A stretch of DNA of 64,000 nucleotides from an uncultured Nitrospiraceae bacterium. Its GTDB lineage: Bacteria; Nitrospirota; Nitrospiria; Nitrospirales; Nitrospiraceae. A program made the translations under genes and the position numbers. This document shows, in pieces, positions 18,716 to 30,524 of the stretch. How positions within the stretch are numbered: the stretch's first letter is position 1; each line of letters opens with the position of its first letter. A model generated the notes under the pieces. That model ran no database searches and was not told the DNA's origin. It saw only the letters and a program-made list of their open reading frames with translations. The stretch lies in NCBI GenBank assembly GCA_963706325.1, contig CAVPLT010000005.1:96001-160000 (forward strand), written 5' to 3'.

Positions 18716-19192
18716 ATGAAATCCAAGCAGGGGGTGATCGAAGTTCTGAATAAGATTCTCACGGCGGATCTCACGGCCATCAATCAATATTTTGTGCATG
18801 CCAAAATGTGTTCGAATTGGGGCTATGATCGGTTGCATCACCATGTCCGGCAGCGGTCCTTTGATGAAATGAAGGATGCTGAAGAGTTGATTGAGCATAT
18901 TCTGTATTTGGAAGGTGTGCCCAATTTGCAGCGTATGAATACGGTGCAGGTCGGGGAAACCGTGCCTGAACAGTTCAAGGCAGATCTGAAAGCCGAGCAG
19001 GAAATGTTGAATCTCTTGAGCGATGGCGTGGTGCATTGTACGAAGGTCGGCGACTTCACCACCCGGCATATGTTTGAAGATATGGTTAAAGATGTCGATG
19101 AGCACATTGATTGGATTGAAACGCAAATGGAGACGATTAAGCAGGTGGGCCTTGAAATGTATCTCTCCGAGCAGATCAAGAAAGAAAGCTGA
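18716..19192 (+). CDS. bfr: Bacterioferritin, heme-Met-retaining subunit
   Basis: AINQYFVHA..NWG, DEMK, ILYLEG.PNLQ, EHIDWIETQ. Confidence 0.93.
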   Translation: MKSKQGVIEVLNKILTADLTAINQYFVHAKMCSNWGYDRLHHHVRQRSFDEMKDAEELIEHILYLEGVPNLQRMNTVQVGETVPEQFKADLKAEQEMLNLLSDGVVHCTKVGDFTTRHMFEDMVKDVDEHIDWIETQMETIKQVGLEMYLSEQIKKES

Positions 19193-19200
19193 TCAGAATT

Positions 19201-19680
19201 ATGAAAGCAAAAGAAGGAGTTCTCGAATTTTTGAATCAAATATTGAAGTCGGAATTGACGGCCGTTCATCAGTACTTGCTTCATGGGGCTATGTGCAAAA
19301 ACTGGGGCTATGCGCGGCTTCACGAGCATTTTAGCCATCTGGCCGATGAGGAAGTCGGTCATTCCTCAGGTCTGATCGATCATCTTCTGTATCTGGAGGG
19401 CTCCCCTGAGGTGGGGCACGTCGACCAGGTTGGGGTCGGACGGACGGTCGCGGACCTCCTCAAGGCGGATCTTGAGTTTGAACGTGACGATGTGGAGTTG
19501 CTTCGTCAAGGTATCTCCCATTGTTCCAAGGTGAAGGATTTTACAACACGGCATTTGCTCGAACACATGATCATCGATACCGAAGAGCACATTGATTGGT
19601 TCGAGACGCAGTTGCGGACCATTGATCAAGTGGCATTAGAGATGTATCTGGCAGAGCACATTAAATCCAGTAAGTCCTGA
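19201..19680 (+). CDS. bfr: Bacterioferritin, second paralog lacking the heme Met
   Basis: SELTAVHQY, EEVGH, LYLEG, EEHIDWFETQ. Confidence 0.9.
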   Translation: MKAKEGVLEFLNQILKSELTAVHQYLLHGAMCKNWGYARLHEHFSHLADEEVGHSSGLIDHLLYLEGSPEVGHVDQVGVGRTVADLLKADLEFERDDVELLRQGISHCSKVKDFTTRHLLEHMIIDTEEHIDWFETQLRTIDQVALEMYLAEHIKSSKS

Positions 19681-20323: not shown

Positions 20324-20839
20324 TCAGTGCTCTACCCGTTTACCAGACATTAATGGTTGCTTCAGCACCCACATCTCATAGAGAGGAATGACCAGCATGA
20401 TCAAAAATCCGGACGTCATGAGCGTATCTCCCGTGAGCATGGTAAGGACAAAAATAGGAGAGACGTAACTAATAAGCCATGGGGACAGCAAGTCGAGCGT
20501 GACTCCGCCGAATGAAATCCAGGTCGTCAACACCTTGAGCCGGTTGCTCGTATTGGTGAGATAGAGGACATGCACCAGAATCATAAACACTACGGGCATT
20601 GTAAACAAATGGAAGTGCGTGATCTCGGCAAGCTCACGGAATGACATCGGTTCGCCGAATGTCGCGTTGGACCCTCGATAATGATCGGCAATTCCTTGTG
20701 GCGACAATCCGGTCATGCTGTGAGCCCAGAAGAAGGAAAAGGCAAAGCCGGCCAACATCAAAGCGAGGAAAAACGTGTAGACGAGCCGAATATGGCGGTC
20801 CGAATCACGGAGACGAAAACGTGAGTTGAAGTTGCGCAT
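20324..20839 (-). CDS. Hypothetical multi-TM membrane protein with His residues in or near the helices
   Basis: About 4 hydrophobic segments; GIADHYRG, EITHFHLF, ILVHV; last gene of the operon. Confidence 0.8.
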   Translation of the reverse strand: MRNFNSRFRLRDSDRHIRLVYTFFLALMLAGFAFSFFWAHSMTGLSPQGIADHYRGSNATFGEPMSFRELAEITHFHLFTMPVVFMILVHVLYLTNTSNRLKVLTTWISFGGVTLDLLSPWLISYVSPIFVLTMLTGDTLMTSGFLIMLVIPLYEMWVLKQPLMSGKRVEH

Positions 20840-20851
20840 CGCTGGTAGGGC

Positions 20852-21541
20852 TCAGTCTCCGAAGATCGATTTGAAAAAGCCCTTTTCTGATTTCTGGGCG
20901 GTCATCGAGTCGCTTCCGAGTCCTTGAGGCTTCAAGTACAATTCATCGACGAGCACCAGAACTCGTTTTATTCCGGCAGTCATTGAACGAACCGACATCG
21001 TCGCTCCGCTAATATTGATGATGTCTTTATTGATACGCACTGGGTCCAGTACCGATTTACCCTCATATTGCACGTTGAAGCGCTTGGTCCGCACCTCGCT
21101 CCCACGCGCCTCCCGGAAAACCAGTAACTCCACGTTTGAGACAAGCCCCTGCGCGTCCACTCCGACCATATAAGTCATGGGTTTATGTTTACCGATTGTA
21201 TTCTGCACGAACGCATAGCCATCGATGTGCCCAGCGGTTTCGCCAATATACACATCAAAAGAGTCCTCAGGAAACTTCCAGCCGATGCGGCTCTCGACCA
21301 CAGATTTTTTGTCCATGGGAACTCGTAACAGTTCCTTTTTGATATGCCCTGATTTAGGGAACATCAGTCTCACCGCATCTTCTTCCGTCAGATAGACCTC
21401 AGCCATCGTCATCTCTCGGTCCGTCAAATACCGTTTGAGTTCCGCATCCCACACCCGTTCGGCCCAGACACAGTTAGGGGAAAGAGGAAACAGCAGTGCC
21501 AGCAAGAAGATGAGCAGCTGAAAGATCATGTTGGTACGCAT
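20852..21541 (-). CDS. Exported FMN-binding (NqrC/RnfG-like) domain protein
   Basis: Signal peptide; flavinylation motif NISGATMS matching [S/T]GA[S/T]. Confidence 0.88.
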   Translation of the reverse strand: MRTNMIFQLLIFLLALLFPLSPNCVWAERVWDAELKRYLTDREMTMAEVYLTEEDAVRLMFPKSGHIKKELLRVPMDKKSVVESRIGWKFPEDSFDVYIGETAGHIDGYAFVQNTIGKHKPMTYMVGVDAQGLVSNVELLVFREARGSEVRTKRFNVQYEGKSVLDPVRINKDIINISGATMSVRSMTAGIKRVLVLVDELYLKPQGLGSDSMTAQKSEKGFFKSIFGD

Positions 21542-21999
21542 CCTTGCTCTCTTAACTTTGCGTTGATCCGATCGACGATATCATTCGTTGCATCTTGCGA
21601 AGGCTCCGTCGGCCACCATTTGGTCGCTTGCGAAGTTGCCCCGCCGCGCGCATGCCATCGCTGTCTGGTTTCCAGGACACTTACAGAAACCGCATCCCTC
21701 GTTTGTTTCACGGAAACATTCATACGCGCCCGCTCTCTATTGCCGAAGCCCTCACGTGAAAAAATTCCAAATGAGCGCTCTGTAAGGGGTGCGACGTCCG
21801 TCCAGGCGGTTTCAATCAATCCCGTTCCCTTGTTGGAGGAAGCGACAGATTGTCCTTGCATGACATCAAGCGTGGCATCCCACACGGCATCATAGGCGCA
21901 CGCATAATTTTGCTCCCGGTCTCCGCTCAAGGTGGCACAGCCTGCACAGATCGAGAAAGTGATTATCATTGCGATACGCGAGATCAACACAGCAAACAC
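21526..21999 (-). CDS. Putative lipoprotein (BamC-N/DUF3568-like)
   Basis: Lipobox CAGC; YDAVWDATL..GLIETAW. Confidence 0.75.
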   Translation of the reverse strand: MFAVLISRIAMIITFSICAGCATLSGDREQNYACAYDAVWDATLDVMQGQSVASSNKGTGLIETAWTDVAPLTERSFGIFSREGFGNRERARMNVSVKQTRDAVSVSVLETRQRWHARGGATSQATKWWPTEPSQDATNDIVDRINAKLREQGCVPT

Positions 22000-22055: not shown

Positions 22056-23528
22056 TTAGAAATACGTTGCGGCTGAAACTACAACAGCACTGTCGTGAAT
22101 CCGCTCTCCTGTGTTGGGGTTGAACGACTTCGGCAGATACTGATAGCTGATCTTAAAGACGGCATCTTCAACGGGACGATAGTTCAAGCCAAACGAAATT
22201 TGTTCAAGTTGGCCTTGGCTCTCGCCACGATTATCCATATTTAAGTTGACGCGGTCATATCGGACAACGGCGGTAAACGTGGAACCTTCCCCGAACCGCT
22301 TCGGAGAAAATTTTGTCAAGAAACTCGGCATGAAGTGGTAATTGCCTTGAATATAGAATCCCTGCATCCGTTGCGGAGGCGCCGCGAAAGAATTTAATGT
22401 GTTAAGGCCGGTGAGCAATGTGCCAGGGGTGGCAAACGTTGCACCCTGGACTGCACGGGAGTTTCCTCTTGAGTAAGCCCATGCTGCTTCGCCGAGGAGT
22501 TCAAATGGCCCTTTCTGGAGCGTCCAGTCAACGGCGGTGATACTCAGTGGGTTATAACTTGTTGAAGATTGATTGCCGTAGTAGCTCGACCCGGCAATTT
22601 CTACGCCGAGCATCGGACTGAAAGCCACTCGACCCGAGACCGCTTTCCCATTATTAATGTCCAAGCCGTCGTCGGAGGCACATTTGCGCTGTCTGGAATT
22701 CCGCGTTCCGTTTTCCTCACTGACTCGTGGAGAGCCATCTTGGTTGTATCCGCAAGGGCCGGTGGTCACATAGAACTCATAATCCAGCTTGCCGGTGCGA
22801 CTTGGATAGAGCGTGCCATAGAACCCCACCCCGGTCTCGGCCATGGTTGATGGGATGATCAGCTGACTGACGAGGGGCCGATCGGTCAAATCGTTCAGAG
22901 GCGAATCGTGCAGCAAGTTAAACTTGCCGATGGGGACGAGGAGAATTCCTGCCCGGATGTTGAAGGGCTCATGTACCAGATAGTCAATATGGGCAAACTC
23001 CAAGCTGATTTCATTGTCGCTAGTTTCTCTAATGCCGTGTTCGATCTCGATTTCAGATGCGAACTTTACGTGTTCAGTAATGTCGGCATAGATGAAGGGG
23101 ACGAATCGTTGCTGGTCGAATCCATTCGTCGTTCCGTTGCCAAAACCTCCGGTCTCTAGGACGGCTTTGTCGTGGGCTCGATATTGAATATCCATGTAGC
23201 CGCCCACGATAGCTTTGGGGGCTGATACGAACGGCTTGGCGTAGACCAGGCGTCCAGATCCGGTGGATCCGAAGGAGAGGGCCGGCTGACTCTCCGTTCG
23301 TCGCTCTCGTCCGACCTCCGGCAGTGATCCTACGCCGGGCTCAGAGTAAGGAGCCACGTTGTCACGCTTTTCGCCTACTCCCTCACGATGCTCGCGCTCT
23401 TGCAACCGCTGCTCTACGGCCTCATCGACTAGTTTTTTGATTTCCTCCGGGGTCATGTTTTCCGCCAATGCCGGCATAGCCGGTAATGCAGCCAGAATGA
23501 GAGCCCCGAGGATTGCCCGCATCTTCAT
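22056..23528 (-). CDS. Outer-membrane beta-barrel porin
   Basis: GGAGG SD at 23535-23539, signal peptide, short coiled segment, amphipathic strands, EIEIEH motif, C-terminal YF. Confidence 0.85.
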   Translation of the reverse strand: MKMRAILGALILAALPAMPALAENMTPEEIKKLVDEAVEQRLQEREHREGVGEKRDNVAPYSEPGVGSLPEVGRERRTESQPALSFGSTGSGRLVYAKPFVSAPKAIVGGYMDIQYRAHDKAVLETGGFGNGTTNGFDQQRFVPFIYADITEHVKFASEIEIEHGIRETSDNEISLEFAHIDYLVHEPFNIRAGILLVPIGKFNLLHDSPLNDLTDRPLVSQLIIPSTMAETGVGFYGTLYPSRTGKLDYEFYVTTGPCGYNQDGSPRVSEENGTRNSRQRKCASDDGLDINNGKAVSGRVAFSPMLGVEIAGSSYYGNQSSTSYNPLSITAVDWTLQKGPFELLGEAAWAYSRGNSRAVQGATFATPGTLLTGLNTLNSFAAPPQRMQGFYIQGNYHFMPSFLTKFSPKRFGEGSTFTAVVRYDRVNLNMDNRGESQGQLEQISFGLNYRPVEDAVFKISYQYLPKSFNPNTGERIHDSAVVVSAATYF

Positions 23529-23534
23529 GGGTAT

Positions 23535-23579
23535 CCTCCATCCGCGAGTAAGGTTGTAGGTTGACTCGGGACTCAAAGG
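23535..23579 (-). promoter_or_regulatory. SD-sequestering mRNA hairpin in the porin leader
   Basis: CCUUU-ga-GUCC-CGAGU pairs with ACUCG-c-GGAU-GGAGG (14 bp including G-U pairs). Confidence 0.6.
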
Positions 23580-23662
23580 TCTCTGGTCTGTAGTGAAAAC
23601 ACTTGGGTACGATCGAAGCTCTGGACGTTTGCCGGCGACGATTCCTCCTTTCAATGGTCGAA

Positions 23663-23839
23663 TCATGCTGTGACGGCGCTCCAGCCTTCGATTGAGGTGA
23701 ATGGGATCACGACGATGCGTTTGCAGCGCTTACACTTCAGTTCGAGCCCCTGCTCCCGAACTTTGGCGATGAGCTGACCGCATTCACAACGAGTTTCAGT
23801 GTGCTGACAGGATGGAGTGGATATATTGTTGGCAATCAT
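23663..23839 (-). CDS. 58-aa Mu-Com-like C4 zinc-finger protein (absent from the ORF track)
   Basis: Hand translation: MIANNISTPSCQHTETRCECGQLIAKVREQGLELKCKRCKRIVVIPFTSIEGWSAVTA; RCxCGxLIAK..ELKCxRCK pattern. Confidence 0.78.
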   Translation of the reverse strand: MIANNISTPSCQHTETRCECGQLIAKVREQGLELKCKRCKRIVVIPFTSIEGWSAVTA

Positions 23840-23860
23840 GTGCGAAATATTTATGTATGA

Positions 23861-23891
23861 TGAAATTGAGAACGATTATTGGTATCTCAAT
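23861..23891. promoter_or_regulatory. Fur-family operator upstream of the zinc-finger/porin operon
   Basis: ATTGAGA-N13-TCTCAAT perfect inverted repeat containing TGAGAACGATTATTG; minus-strand TTGACA at 23903-23908. Confidence 0.62.
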
Positions 23892-24475
23892 AGGGAAAAG
23901 AATGTCAAGCATAGATTCTCTGCCGCTTAAGTGAAGTGCGTTTGCCGGACTGTTTACTTATAATTGCCACAGGAGACAGAAGTTTCTGACGTATTGCAAG
24001 AGCGGGGGTTCCAGCCATTTGCTTCGCGTTCCTTTCAACCGGCGTTGTAATGATTCCTCGCTCTAAGCCCACAGCTGCTGTAATTACCTGAATTAGTAAA
24101 GACCTGTTGGCCCAGCCCTGCGTTATGTGGAAATGAGTACGGCAGATGGCCGATACAGCGGGAGATTCGAATCCGGCGACGGAGCGTTGTAAGCTTTCTT
24201 CCTGCTGGAGCGCAATGATCTCACGCGTGTAATCAGTGGACGCTCTACGTGTCGATGGTTCAACATCCGTATTCACTTTCTTTGGGCAATGAGCCGGTGC
24301 TTTTCAGTGACTTGGCGATTCGCGATCGATTCGCCGAGTTGAGGAGGCAGTTTGCTCCTATCAATTGAGGCCGAAGACGACAACAGGAGCAGGGCAGGCA
24401 GGGTCGTAGTGTCATGCCCTCACGGGCAAACTTTCGCAACTGTTAATCCTTCTCCAACAAAAACGGAGACCGCTT

Positions 24476-25573
24476 ATGAAGTGCTGCCCGATCCTCGGTA
24501 TCCAAAGTGTATCCAGCGTCACCTCTGGTAGGGACGCATTCACACGGAAAGGACTCCGCGTTGCGCTGATAAGTGGTCTTTTCATTGCGCTACTGTTCGT
24601 GGCTGGATGTGTGAGTGATGGGGGTACCTTTGTTCCTGTTGTGGTCAAGCGCACGCAGATACATATGGGAACCCTAGTGGCTATTACGGCGGTCGCGACA
24701 AGTCGGCAATCGGCACAAGAGGCAACGTCGGTAGGGTTTCAGGAGGTTCGTCGTTTAGAAGGGTTGCTCAGCACTTGGATCGCGACCAGCGAACTCTCGC
24801 ATGTCAACGAGGCGGCTGGCCTCAAGCCCATCCCAATCAGTCCGGATACGATGCGTATTCTGGAAGAGGCTATCGAGATGGGACGGTTGACGGAAGGCGG
24901 CTTCAATATTCTCATAGGTCCAGCAGTCGAAGCCTGGAGCGTTTTGGACCGACAAGAGATTCCATCGGAGCTGGCGTTACAAGCGGTTCACTCCCTCATG
25001 GATCTGAGATCGCTTCATCTTAACACCTCACAGGGAACCGTCTATCTGACCAAGGCTGGCATGCGAGTTGATGTTGGCGGTATCGGTAAGGGATATGCCG
25101 CGGATATGGCTGTTGCAGCGATGAAGAAGGCTGGCGCAACTGCGGGAGTCGTCGCGTTATCAGGTGATATCAAGACTTTCGGCAGACTGCCCGACGGAGC
25201 CATGTTCCCGTTCGGCATTCGACATCCGCGACGGGAAGGAGCGGTGTTGGCGTTTGTCGACCTGCAGGACGAGGCAATCTCAACAGCGGGAGACTATGAA
25301 CGGTATTTTGAACGAGATGGGGTGCGATACCATCACATTCTTGACCCGGTCACTCTGCAGCCTGCTCGGGACTGCCAAAGCGTCACGATCGTCGCTCGCG
25401 ACGGAATCACGGCCGATGGATTGGATACCGGGGTCTTTGTGATGGGGCGAGAGCGAGGCCTGGCGCTGATTGAACGGTTGCCGGGAGTTGGCGCGGTCAT
25501 TGTAGATCGTGATGGTAAGGTTTGGATATCTTCCTATCTGAAGGGAAGGGTCAGAATCGTTCGAAGCGATTAA
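24476..25573 (+). CDS. apbE: FAD:protein FMN transferase ApbE
   Basis: MGT, SELSHVN, DVGGIGKGYAAD, ISTAGDYER, HHILDP, ADGLDT; lipobox VAGC; true start probably downstream of 24476. Confidence 0.93.
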   Translation: MKCCPILGIQSVSSVTSGRDAFTRKGLRVALISGLFIALLFVAGCVSDGGTFVPVVVKRTQIHMGTLVAITAVATSRQSAQEATSVGFQEVRRLEGLLSTWIATSELSHVNEAAGLKPIPISPDTMRILEEAIEMGRLTEGGFNILIGPAVEAWSVLDRQEIPSELALQAVHSLMDLRSLHLNTSQGTVYLTKAGMRVDVGGIGKGYAADMAVAAMKKAGATAGVVALSGDIKTFGRLPDGAMFPFGIRHPRREGAVLAFVDLQDEAISTAGDYERYFERDGVRYHHILDPVTLQPARDCQSVTIVARDGITADGLDTGVFVMGRERGLALIERLPGVGAVIVDRDGKVWISSYLKGRVRIVRSD

Positions 25574-29492: not shown

Positions 29493-30524
29493 TCAGCGGA
29501 GGCCAACCTGCTCGATCAGAGCGAGGGTCGGCTCGCGCAATTCGGCAAGTCGGGCCAGTGGAACGAGTGCAGCACGAAAGGCATGCCGATCGACGAGGGC
29601 TGGGTCGGCCTTCACATCCGGATGCAGAGGATATTCTTTATCAAGGTCAGCGAACAATTTCTGGCCTGCCTGGGCGACCAGGAACTCAATGAGAAGCTTG
29701 GCATTGTCGACGTGTTTCGACGCGCGTGTCACCCCGATACCGGACACATTCATAATCGCGCCCATGCCGCCCTCCTGCTGATCGGGCATTAAGGCTGCGA
29801 TCGGTGCTGTGGGCTGCGCTGCGAAATGGCGGTAAATATAATAATGGTTCACGATTCCTGCCGCGACTTGTCCTTTCGCCACGGCCTCCACGATTTGAGA
29901 ACTTTTCTGATACACCTGCGTACCCGCGTTGCCTTTGAGACCCTCGAGAAATTGTTTTGTCCGCTCGTCTCCGAGCGTTGCCTTGATGACCGACACGCCT
30001 GCTTGCAAATACTCGCTACCGGAGTTGGGAATGGCAATTTTGTTCTTCCATTCTGGTTGCGAAAGGTCGAGTAGTGACTTGATCTGATCCGGCTTCGCGA
30101 GGGTCGTGTTATAGACGACAATCCAGAATCGACCGGACAGGCCGATCCAGCTATTGTCGGAGGCTCGGAATTGCGAAGGAATGGCTCGTTCGACCTCCCG
30201 CATGTTCATGGGCCGCAGTAATTTGAGTTCTCGCGCGTGTTCCAGACTGCCCGCATCATTTGTCAGGAACACATCAGCGGGAGTATTGTCCCCTTCCGCT
30301 TGCAATCGGTTGACCAGTTCAGTTGTTCCGGACGACAGAAGCTCGATCTGAATGCCGCTTTTAGATTGGAATTGGTCCAGCACGGGTTTAATGAGCCGTT
30401 CTGCGCGTCCTGAGTACACGACGAGTTTGTCGGCAGCGAAGGTGTCAGCTGGAGTAAGTTGGAATATACCCAGCGCTCCCAGCAGAAAAGTCACAGCCCA
30501 CAACGGGCGTGAGGATGGAACCAT
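29493..30524 (-). CDS. Fe3+ ABC transporter substrate-binding protein (FbpA/FutA-like)
   Basis: VVYSGR, EG..TPADVFL, VNHYY di-tyrosine iron ligands, EYPL. Confidence 0.92.
   Translation of the reverse strand: MVPSSRPLWAVTFLLGALGIFQLTPADTFAADKLVVYSGRAERLIKPVLDQFQSKSGIQIELLSSGTTELVNRLQAEGDNTPADVFLTNDAGSLEHARELKLLRPMNMREVERAIPSQFRASDNSWIGLSGRFWIVVYNTTLAKPDQIKSLLDLSQPEWKNKIAIPNSGSEYLQAGVSVIKATLGDERTKQFLEGLKGNAGTQVYQKSSQIVEAVAKGQVAAGIVNHYYIYRHFAAQPTAPIAALMPDQQEGGMGAIMNVSGIGVTRASKHVDNAKLLIEFLVAQAGQKLFADLDKEYPLHPDVKADPALVDRHAFRAALVPLARLAELREPTLALIEQVGLR

Follow-up and report, generated by a model that had tools for sequence, protein, structure and literature searches.

Can a chromosomal iron-uptake operon be governed by a protein-RNA switch of the kind known from the com and mom genes of phage Mu? 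The question is raised by a short segment (23529..23839, minus strand) of a 64,000-nucleotide (nt) stretch of contig CAVPLT010000005.1, from an uncultured Nitrospiraceae bacterium; we refer to the whole stretch as the window. In this segment, an open reading frame (ORF) of 58 amino acids (aa) is separated by a 134-nt spacer from the ATG of an outer-membrane porin gene. A preliminary description of the segment, in which every motif coordinate proved correct, had proposed that the ORF encodes a Com-type zinc finger and that the spacer folds into a stem locking the Shine-Dalgarno (SD) sequence of the porin gene. That interpretation is right in kind and wrong in the particular stem. The comparisons presented here favour, on balance, a Com-like RNA-binding activator or antiterminator that would act downstream of a Fur-type operator.

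A conserved zinc-ribbon gene with remote likeness to Mu Com

The ORF (23663..23839, minus strand) is the first gene of the operon and encodes a small protein with four cysteines in a zinc-ribbon arrangement (C18-x-C20 ... C36-x-x-C39). Its conservation is extensive: the gene was present in 37 of 41 related genomes, including all 24 of those searched in the genus Nitrospira, to which the window's organism belongs (76-90% identity within the genus), and several of the related genomes contained two to four copies. A sample across the phylum contained it in 31 of 151 genomes; every sampled member of two families carried it (18/18 and 7/7) and its occurrence elsewhere was sporadic. Among 79 distinct orthologues, the variable columns at the first, second and third codon positions numbered 14, 5 and 38 over 38 core codons, and codon differences were mostly synonymous (52008 vs 8191 non-synonymous). 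Judged by this pattern of substitution, the 58-aa ORF is a real gene under purifying selection. Residues R17, C18, C20, G21, K35, C36, R38 and C39 were invariant in 22 diverse family members, and a profile search of 1.84 billion representatives retrieved 1453 relatives at E <= 0.001. Tandem Com-like domains occur in a number of representatives 99-127 aa long (P0121, P0122, P0125 and others), and one of 130 aa also matches Peptidase_M48. In one sister-family genome (G034:C1:683851-684020) the Com-like gene matches in two pieces lying in different frames, which suggests a frameshifted copy.

Profile comparison and matches to the PHROG database point to the 58-aa protein as a remote relative of Mu Com. 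Alignment of a 22-sequence family profile with Mu Com using hhalign gave a probability of 89.7% (E 1.8e-6) over 31 columns, and BLASTP, run as a single pairwise comparison, gave 35% identity over 31 residues (E 7e-5). The PHROG matches were to family 6417 ('translational regulator', E 9.8e-5) and family 13819 (gpCom, E 0.015). The finger had been described as hidden, which is only partly so: the protein already bears the name 'Mu-like prophage FluMu protein com' in public entries for related Nitrospira. The Com likeness is therefore not new, but the label is carried there without a function attached. An AlphaFold2 (AF2) model of the small protein comprised three strands with a mean predicted local distance difference test (pLDDT) score of 73.4. 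Foldseek comparison of this model with the PDB returned nothing at E <= 0.001, its weak rows being generic zinc ribbons, and a PDB sequence search with the family profile found no Com structure, returning weak ribosomal or unrelated zinc-ribbon rows at E of at least 0.03.

The leader is non-coding and contains a Com-type motif

The spacer was 134 nt long in 32 of 90 distinct leaders and mostly 123-143 nt. The stop codon of the small gene overlaps an ATG (ATGA, 23663-23666, minus strand), and this overlap was kept in 74 of the 90 leaders. The 138-nt frame that begins at the overlapping ATG was considered as an N-terminal extension of the porin or as a leader peptide, and was rejected in both roles. 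It was in phase with the porin in 45/90 leaders and open throughout in 33/90, and the conserved block of the leader was read in three different frames across leaders. Because the phase with the porin is not kept and the block is read in three frames, the leader is taken to be non-coding.

The conserved block centres on a bipartite motif, CCAGAGACC-UUU-GAGUCCC (23568..23586, minus strand), which reads CC(N)3GAG and can form a GAC/GUC hairpin. Both GAGUCCCGAG and CCAGAGACC were invariant in 81/81 distinct Nitrospiraceae leaders, with variation in the N3 between them, and the longer run (G/A)CCAGAGACC-N3-4-GAGUCCCGAG was essentially invariant in the same leaders; unlike this core, the porin itself falls to ~48% identity in some close loci. 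In the window the core is GAGACC-UUU-GAGUCCC, with GAGUCCC at 23574-23568 and CC-UUU-GAG at 23579-23572. The GAG motifs listed in the preliminary description fared unequally. GAGUCCC belongs to the invariant core, whereas the GAGCGCC at the end of the ORF (23681-23675) was seen in 1 of 20 close loci, and of the two CCAGAG copies (at 23624 and 23586) the one at 23624 was seen in 2 of 101 distinct leaders. The background frequency of GAGNNCC in the window is ~1.1 per kilobase per strand, so two copies are not unusual by count; the feature of the motif that goes beyond chance is its conservation, not its copy number. Within the genome, GAGTCCCGAGTC occurs once and GACCAGAGACC twice, which is about the chance number. 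Scanning 23300-24100 on both strands against Rfam 15 gave 0 matches at E up to 10.

The published target of Com resembles this core. According to PMC6483171, systematic evolution of ligands by exponential enrichment (SELEX) with a Com zinc finger yielded GAG(N)2CC, usually in two copies, one on each side of a 3-4-bp stem, and the authors propose that Com recognises CC(N)2-3GAG in a hairpin loop adjoining the translation-inhibition structure, which it then melts. The GAG(N)2CC target given in the preliminary description is therefore in print, and at the level of sequence the invariant leader core matches it.

A related unit was found in the sister families, where GAGGNCC-N2-6-GAGNCCC occurred twice in 27, once in 11 and not at all in 3 of 41 leaders. 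In 64 of 65 such units a 4-bp GGNC/GNCC stem can present a CC(N)2-6GAG loop, and the third pair of this stem is exchanged between A-U, G-C and G-U (GGAC/GUCC in 42 units, GGGC/GUCC in 9, GGGC/GCCC in 8, GGGC/GCUC in 4 and GGAC/GUUC in 1).

An SD-like block, GAAAGGAGG (23644..23652, minus strand), stands just 3' of the small-gene stop in most close leaders. It lies 0-13 nt past that stop in most relatives and is unpaired in the consensus fold. Its use as the ribosome-binding site of a small ORF was rejected, no start codon lying behind it; a role in ribosome standby is a guess.

A long-range helix encloses the porin start region

The decamer GAGUCCCGAG (23565..23574, minus strand) is complementary to CUCGGGGCUC (23501..23510, minus strand), which spans porin codons 7-10 (+19 to +28). 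The resulting 10-bp helix (23574-23565 with 23510-23501) closes a loop of ~55 nt that holds the SD sequence and the AUG. In the 81 Nitrospiraceae leaders, 99.3% of 810 cells paired, compared with 22-60% in slid controls; 8 one-sided pair-preserving changes and 6 unpaired cells were observed. RNAalifold predicted this helix as the only structure in both the 130-column and the full-leader alignments. The third positions of codons 6-9 (ATC CTC GGG GCT) had an entropy of 0.29-0.50 bits vs 1.2-1.9 bits in most of codons 10-23, and such frozen synonymous sites may be counted as support for the helix.

Read from the sequences, the arms of the helix are lineage-specific yet complementary. Nitrospiraceae leaders combine GAGUCCC+GAG with CUC+GGGGCUC, and one sister genus combines GAGUCCC+AAACA with UGUUU+GGG(G/A)(C/U)UC. 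Another sister genus pairs GAGUCCCC with GGGGGC and also GAGGACC with GGUCCUC, and one genome of that genus has GAGGGCC with GGCCCUC; in a third family the arms are GGACCCCGAG and CUCGGGGUCC. Single-sequence folds produced a leader-to-coding helix around the SD sequence and AUG in 10/10 leaders. Seven sister-family leaders had z-scores from -2.7 to -4.4; the window scored -2.18 and two other Nitrospiraceae scored -0.51 and -1.47. A duplex test compared the pairing of the motif unit with codons 2-21 to that in 200 shuffles, a leader passing if at most 5 of the 200 were as good. It was passed by 27 of 38 sister-family leaders (3 further loci were unscorable) and 49 of 81 Nitrospiraceae leaders, the window scoring -26.2 kcal/mol (z -3.24, 0/200).

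The preliminary description had placed the lock elsewhere, in a local 14-bp stem over the SD sequence (23535..23579, minus strand; 23579-23564 with 23549-23535) whose formation excludes the long-range helix. That this stem is the operative lock, burying the SD sequence, strikes us as very improbable. Folding of the 81-nt piece 23600-23520 with RNAfold does return exactly this stem as the minimum-energy structure (-14.1 kcal/mol), the stem can form completely in ~27-29 sequences, those of the window's own clade, and an inner hairpin pairing the SD sequence exists in sister-family leaders. However, the fold has a z-score of -0.20, with 81 of 200 dinucleotide shuffles as stable, and when longer pieces (124 nt and 201 nt) are folded, the leader bases of the stem pair with the coding region instead in the minimum-energy structure. 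Only 75.8% of its cells paired in the alignment; 6 of the 14 pairs, on the inner side, failed in 36-58 of 81 sequences with neither compensation nor covariation, and RNAalifold did not predict the stem on the leader alignments. The local stem competes with the better conserved leader-to-coding helix, which reaches outside the segment first described. An inner helix, GACC/GGUC, was also tried and rejected; only the majority clade (51-52 of 81 sequences) has it, and it is missing from the window's clade.

The unit hairpin that presents the motif and the long-range helix both need the same GUC bases, and are therefore mutually exclusive. This geometry bears on the direction of control. With the sign reversed, the small protein would stabilise the inhibitory helix (or the terminator described below), or would negatively autoregulate its own transcript, limiting the synthesis of outer-membrane proteins after Fur derepression. 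The encoding of a protein and its presumed target on one transcript is typical also of autoregulators. The motif bases lie inside paired arms, where duplex binding would be possible, and duplex binding by Com was reported in one study, as cited in PMC6483171. We nevertheless consider reversal quite unlikely: in the model set out in the same text Com activates by melting and the hairpin-loop form is preferred, and the loop-presenting unit hairpin, which excludes the long helix, is conserved with base-pair exchange. Activation by the small protein is thus the direction that we infer.

Paralogous loci combine the motif with a terminator

In a second group of paralogues the gene order is TonB, a 152-aa ORF, the Com-like gene and a TonB-dependent receptor gene. 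The leader of this group reads GAGGCC-A-(A/G)AG-GAC...GUC-CAGAGCCC and continues into a hairpin and a U run. Of 25 distinct leaders, 24 carry CC(A/G)GAGCCC in the 5' foot of the stem, and 22 of these 24 have GAGGCC upstream. The hairpin paired in 96.6% of cells, four of its pairs covaried on both sides and 0/500 shuffles matched it; a simple terminator scan also called it an intrinsic terminator. One locus in a distant family of the phylum shows a like design, with the motif in the foot of the terminator stem.

A third paralogue group is convergent to a TonB-dependent receptor gene (L040:301-4052, L021:5921-9300). The receptor of L040 has an STN domain and its gene adjoins one for an extracytoplasmic function (ECF) sigma factor, a setting like that of FecI/FecA. 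No GAG...CC leader was seen downstream of the third-group paralogues. The window's genome contains the porin-linked copy and one third-group copy. At L039:1571-2843, in a sister-family genome, a paralogue lies outside any iron context, beside a gene with a BrnT-like toxin domain and an HD-domain gene.

The recurrence of the motif bears on whether the RNA elements work through the small protein at all. Helix and terminator might be cis elements independent of it, serving mRNA stability, ribosome standby or recognition by a small RNA (sRNA) or ligand, and the protein might do something else, for example as a DNA-bound co-regulator, a role claimed for some HemP/HmuP proteins, or in metal handling. 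RNA binding by the protein is suggested by analogy, its Com likeness lies under family thresholds, and the Foldseek rows, all weaker than E <= 0.001, were generic zinc ribbons. HemP/HmuP proteins, encoded at the same genomic position, are moreover reported as both transcriptional and post-transcriptional regulators in PMC9131926. We regard this explanation as somewhat unlikely, for the GAG...CC motif family recurs beside three diverged paralogue or orthologue groups and on two expression platforms, the motif equals the experimentally selected Com target given in PMC6483171, and no Rfam family matches the leader.

The small gene heads an iron-uptake operon under a putative Fur operator

The porin gene (22056..23528, minus strand) encodes 490 aa with a weak match to Porin_O_P (24.8 bits vs a cut-off of 20.9). 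Its ribosome-binding site (23526..23539, minus strand) consists of GGAGG at 23539-23535 and the ATG at 23528-23526, and a signal peptide is encoded next. The remainder of the operon (20324..21999, minus strand) comprises a lipoprotein-like ORF, an exported FMN_bind protein and a small membrane protein. A divergent gene for an ApbE flavin transferase follows at 24476..25573 (plus strand, E 5.6e-76), and the nearby genes encode two ferritin-like proteins, ExbB, ExbD and an ATP-binding cassette (ABC) importer with a TOBE domain. The ferritin-like genes, of bacterioferritin type, form an adjacent pair (18716-19680, plus strand) beside the iron-uptake island. The Pfam scan of the neighbourhood revealed no phage genes near the operon and no mom, and a tblastn search of 50,697 phage records with the small protein gave no match. 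The small gene is thus the head of a chromosomal iron-uptake operon; the preliminary description had spoken of a metal-uptake operon.

The linkage to the porin extends to relatives. A porin match lies directly downstream of the small gene in 19 of 20 close loci, the 20th locus ending too early, and the sister-family orthologues likewise precede a porin gene. At one locus in a further family of the class, the small gene is followed by a 401-aa ORF with no Pfam match and by a gene for an ApbE-FMN_bind fusion; this fused protein has 512 aa (L123:214-1752, minus strand). In a public metatranscriptome only two contigs, each of 160 nt, matched the locus (23000-23159 and 23828-23987), and two further public RNA runs contained short pieces, or pieces of a relative, at the locus.

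Upstream of the small gene, two blocks were conserved to at least 95% in 82 distinct sequences: TTGACA, a -35-like hexamer of the operon promoter (23903..23908, minus strand), and an AT-rich block of 27 nt (23860..23886, minus strand), GATAYYAATAATCGTTCTCAATTTCAT in relatives, that resembles a Fur box. The resemblance was assessed by eye against the Fur consensus. With the iron context, it makes the block at 23886-23860 a putative Fur operator, in keeping with the layering on Fur-family repression that had been suggested for this operon. A strict scan of 23400-24100 for sigma-70 promoters and terminators found no complete promoter and no terminator. A second operator-like sequence, with 3 mismatches in 18, lies at ~29839-29856 (plus strand) upstream of the ABC importer genes, which may belong to the same regulon as the porin operon.

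A model for the switch and the evidence that bears on it

In the reading that we favour, relief of the Fur-type operator, with Fur as the presumed repressor, would produce one transcript carrying the Com-like gene, the 134-nt leader and the porin operon. On the naked RNA, GAGUCCCGAG would pair with porin codons 7-10 and hinder ribosome entry at the SD sequence and AUG. The zinc-ribbon protein would bind GAGACC-N3-GAGUCCC, that is CC(N)3GAG displayed by a short hairpin, and the protein-bound hairpin would occupy the GUC bases of the long helix, freeing the start region so that the porin could be translated. At the paralogous receptor loci, protein on the motif would block the terminator foot and thereby cause antitermination. 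Outer-membrane uptake proteins would then be made only once the regulator has accumulated on the Fur-derepressed transcript.

A wider proposal, which we hold more tentatively while regarding it as a serious possibility, is that modular leader switches in Nitrospirales have as their protein 'ligand' the members of a whole zinc-ribbon family that has a common ancestor with phage Com. Such switches would consist of a CC(N)2-6GAG hairpin joined to either of two expression platforms, the porin-codon helix or the TonB-receptor terminator, and would add a second, post-transcriptional gate to Fur control. In the boldest form of the proposal, the signal itself would be whether zinc or iron occupies the Cys4 site.

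Several observations weigh against the favoured reading of the porin leader as a Com-like switch. The window protein did not match PF10122 (Zn_ribbon_Com, curated cut-off 22.9 bits) even at E 10, and the test of Pfam membership accordingly failed. In a whole-genome scan the PF10122 matches were led by the paralogue (16.7 bits) and did not include the window ORF. The same family was nonetheless the commonest weak Pfam match among relatives: it appeared in 11 of 22 members and 20 of 150 representatives, and one of these 150 scored above the cut-off. The first knuckle, CxC, is one residue shorter than the CxxC of Mu Com. Both arms of the long-range helix are frozen within Nitrospiraceae, which leaves none of its 10 pairs covarying on both sides (0/10). 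From one lineage to another the register of pairing changes and the compensatory changes do not all fall at homologous columns; for this reason the lineage differences are counted as support and not as strict covariation. The duplex test was failed by 11/38 sister-family and 32/81 Nitrospiraceae leaders. The conserved helix of the window surrounds the SD sequence but leaves it unpaired, which makes inhibition of translation an assumption, and the proposed binding hairpin has only 3 bp and is weak alone. Other paralogues are found convergent to a receptor gene, beside an HD-domain gene or beside an oxidoreductase gene.

Com and mom have so far been treated as a phage curiosity. In Nitrospira, the chief nitrite oxidisers of soils, waters and treatment plants, a protein and an RNA motif of this kind belong to the fixed equipment for iron uptake and are conserved by vertical descent. 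Should the model prove true, outer-membrane transport would have a new class of regulators, small RNA-binding proteins encoded in cis, and a single motif would drive both translational and termination control; the system would also provide a compact, portable protein-RNA switch made of a 58-aa protein and an RNA of ~130 nt.

Comparison with known systems

The open-access literature yielded no description of a Nitrospira or iron-linked Com-like regulator. The cargo of the operon is more familiar. The porin, FMN_bind protein, small membrane protein and divergent ApbE gene resemble the ApbE-associated extracytosolic flavoprotein clusters for iron reduction described in the accessible text of PMC8238504, which in that text concerns such cargo and not a switch.

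In its genomic position the small gene is like those of HemP/HmuP/ChuP. According to PMC9131926, these small proteins are likewise encoded at the head of an outer-membrane uptake operon that Fur regulates, and a post-transcriptional action through conserved motifs (HPRE) in the 5' untranslated region of the receptor gene has been proposed for them. Unlike the protein studied here, HemP/HmuP are reported to bind haem and to be without a Cys4 ribbon, and the HPRE motif differs from GAG...CC. Pfam scans of the window protein and 22 relatives gave no match to the HemP family.

The paralogous leaders are comparable to protein-dependent antitermination or attenuation leaders in that the motif overlaps the 5' foot of a covarying terminator located between the regulator and the regulated gene; unlike in those systems, antitermination here would be an inference from the arrangement. 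We know of no Com-type zinc ribbon among the RNA-binding folds of antitermination and attenuation systems.

The closest parallel is Mu Com/mom itself. The Nitrospira system lies in a chromosome, away from phage genes, and its presumed target is not mom but an outer-membrane iron-uptake operon under a Fur-like operator. Its protein has a CxC first knuckle and a score under the Pfam threshold. A 134-nt spacer takes the place of the com/mom gene overlap, the helix reaches into codons 7-10 of the target and the paralogous version uses a terminator. Both systems have a small Cys4 zinc-ribbon protein whose gene directly precedes the target gene on one transcript, and the two proteins are remotely alike in sequence over 31 columns. 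As in the mom system outlined in PMC6483171, the start region of the target lies within a putative inhibitory RNA structure, and GAG(N)2CC or CC(N)2-3GAG is found in a short hairpin that adjoins or overlaps this structure.

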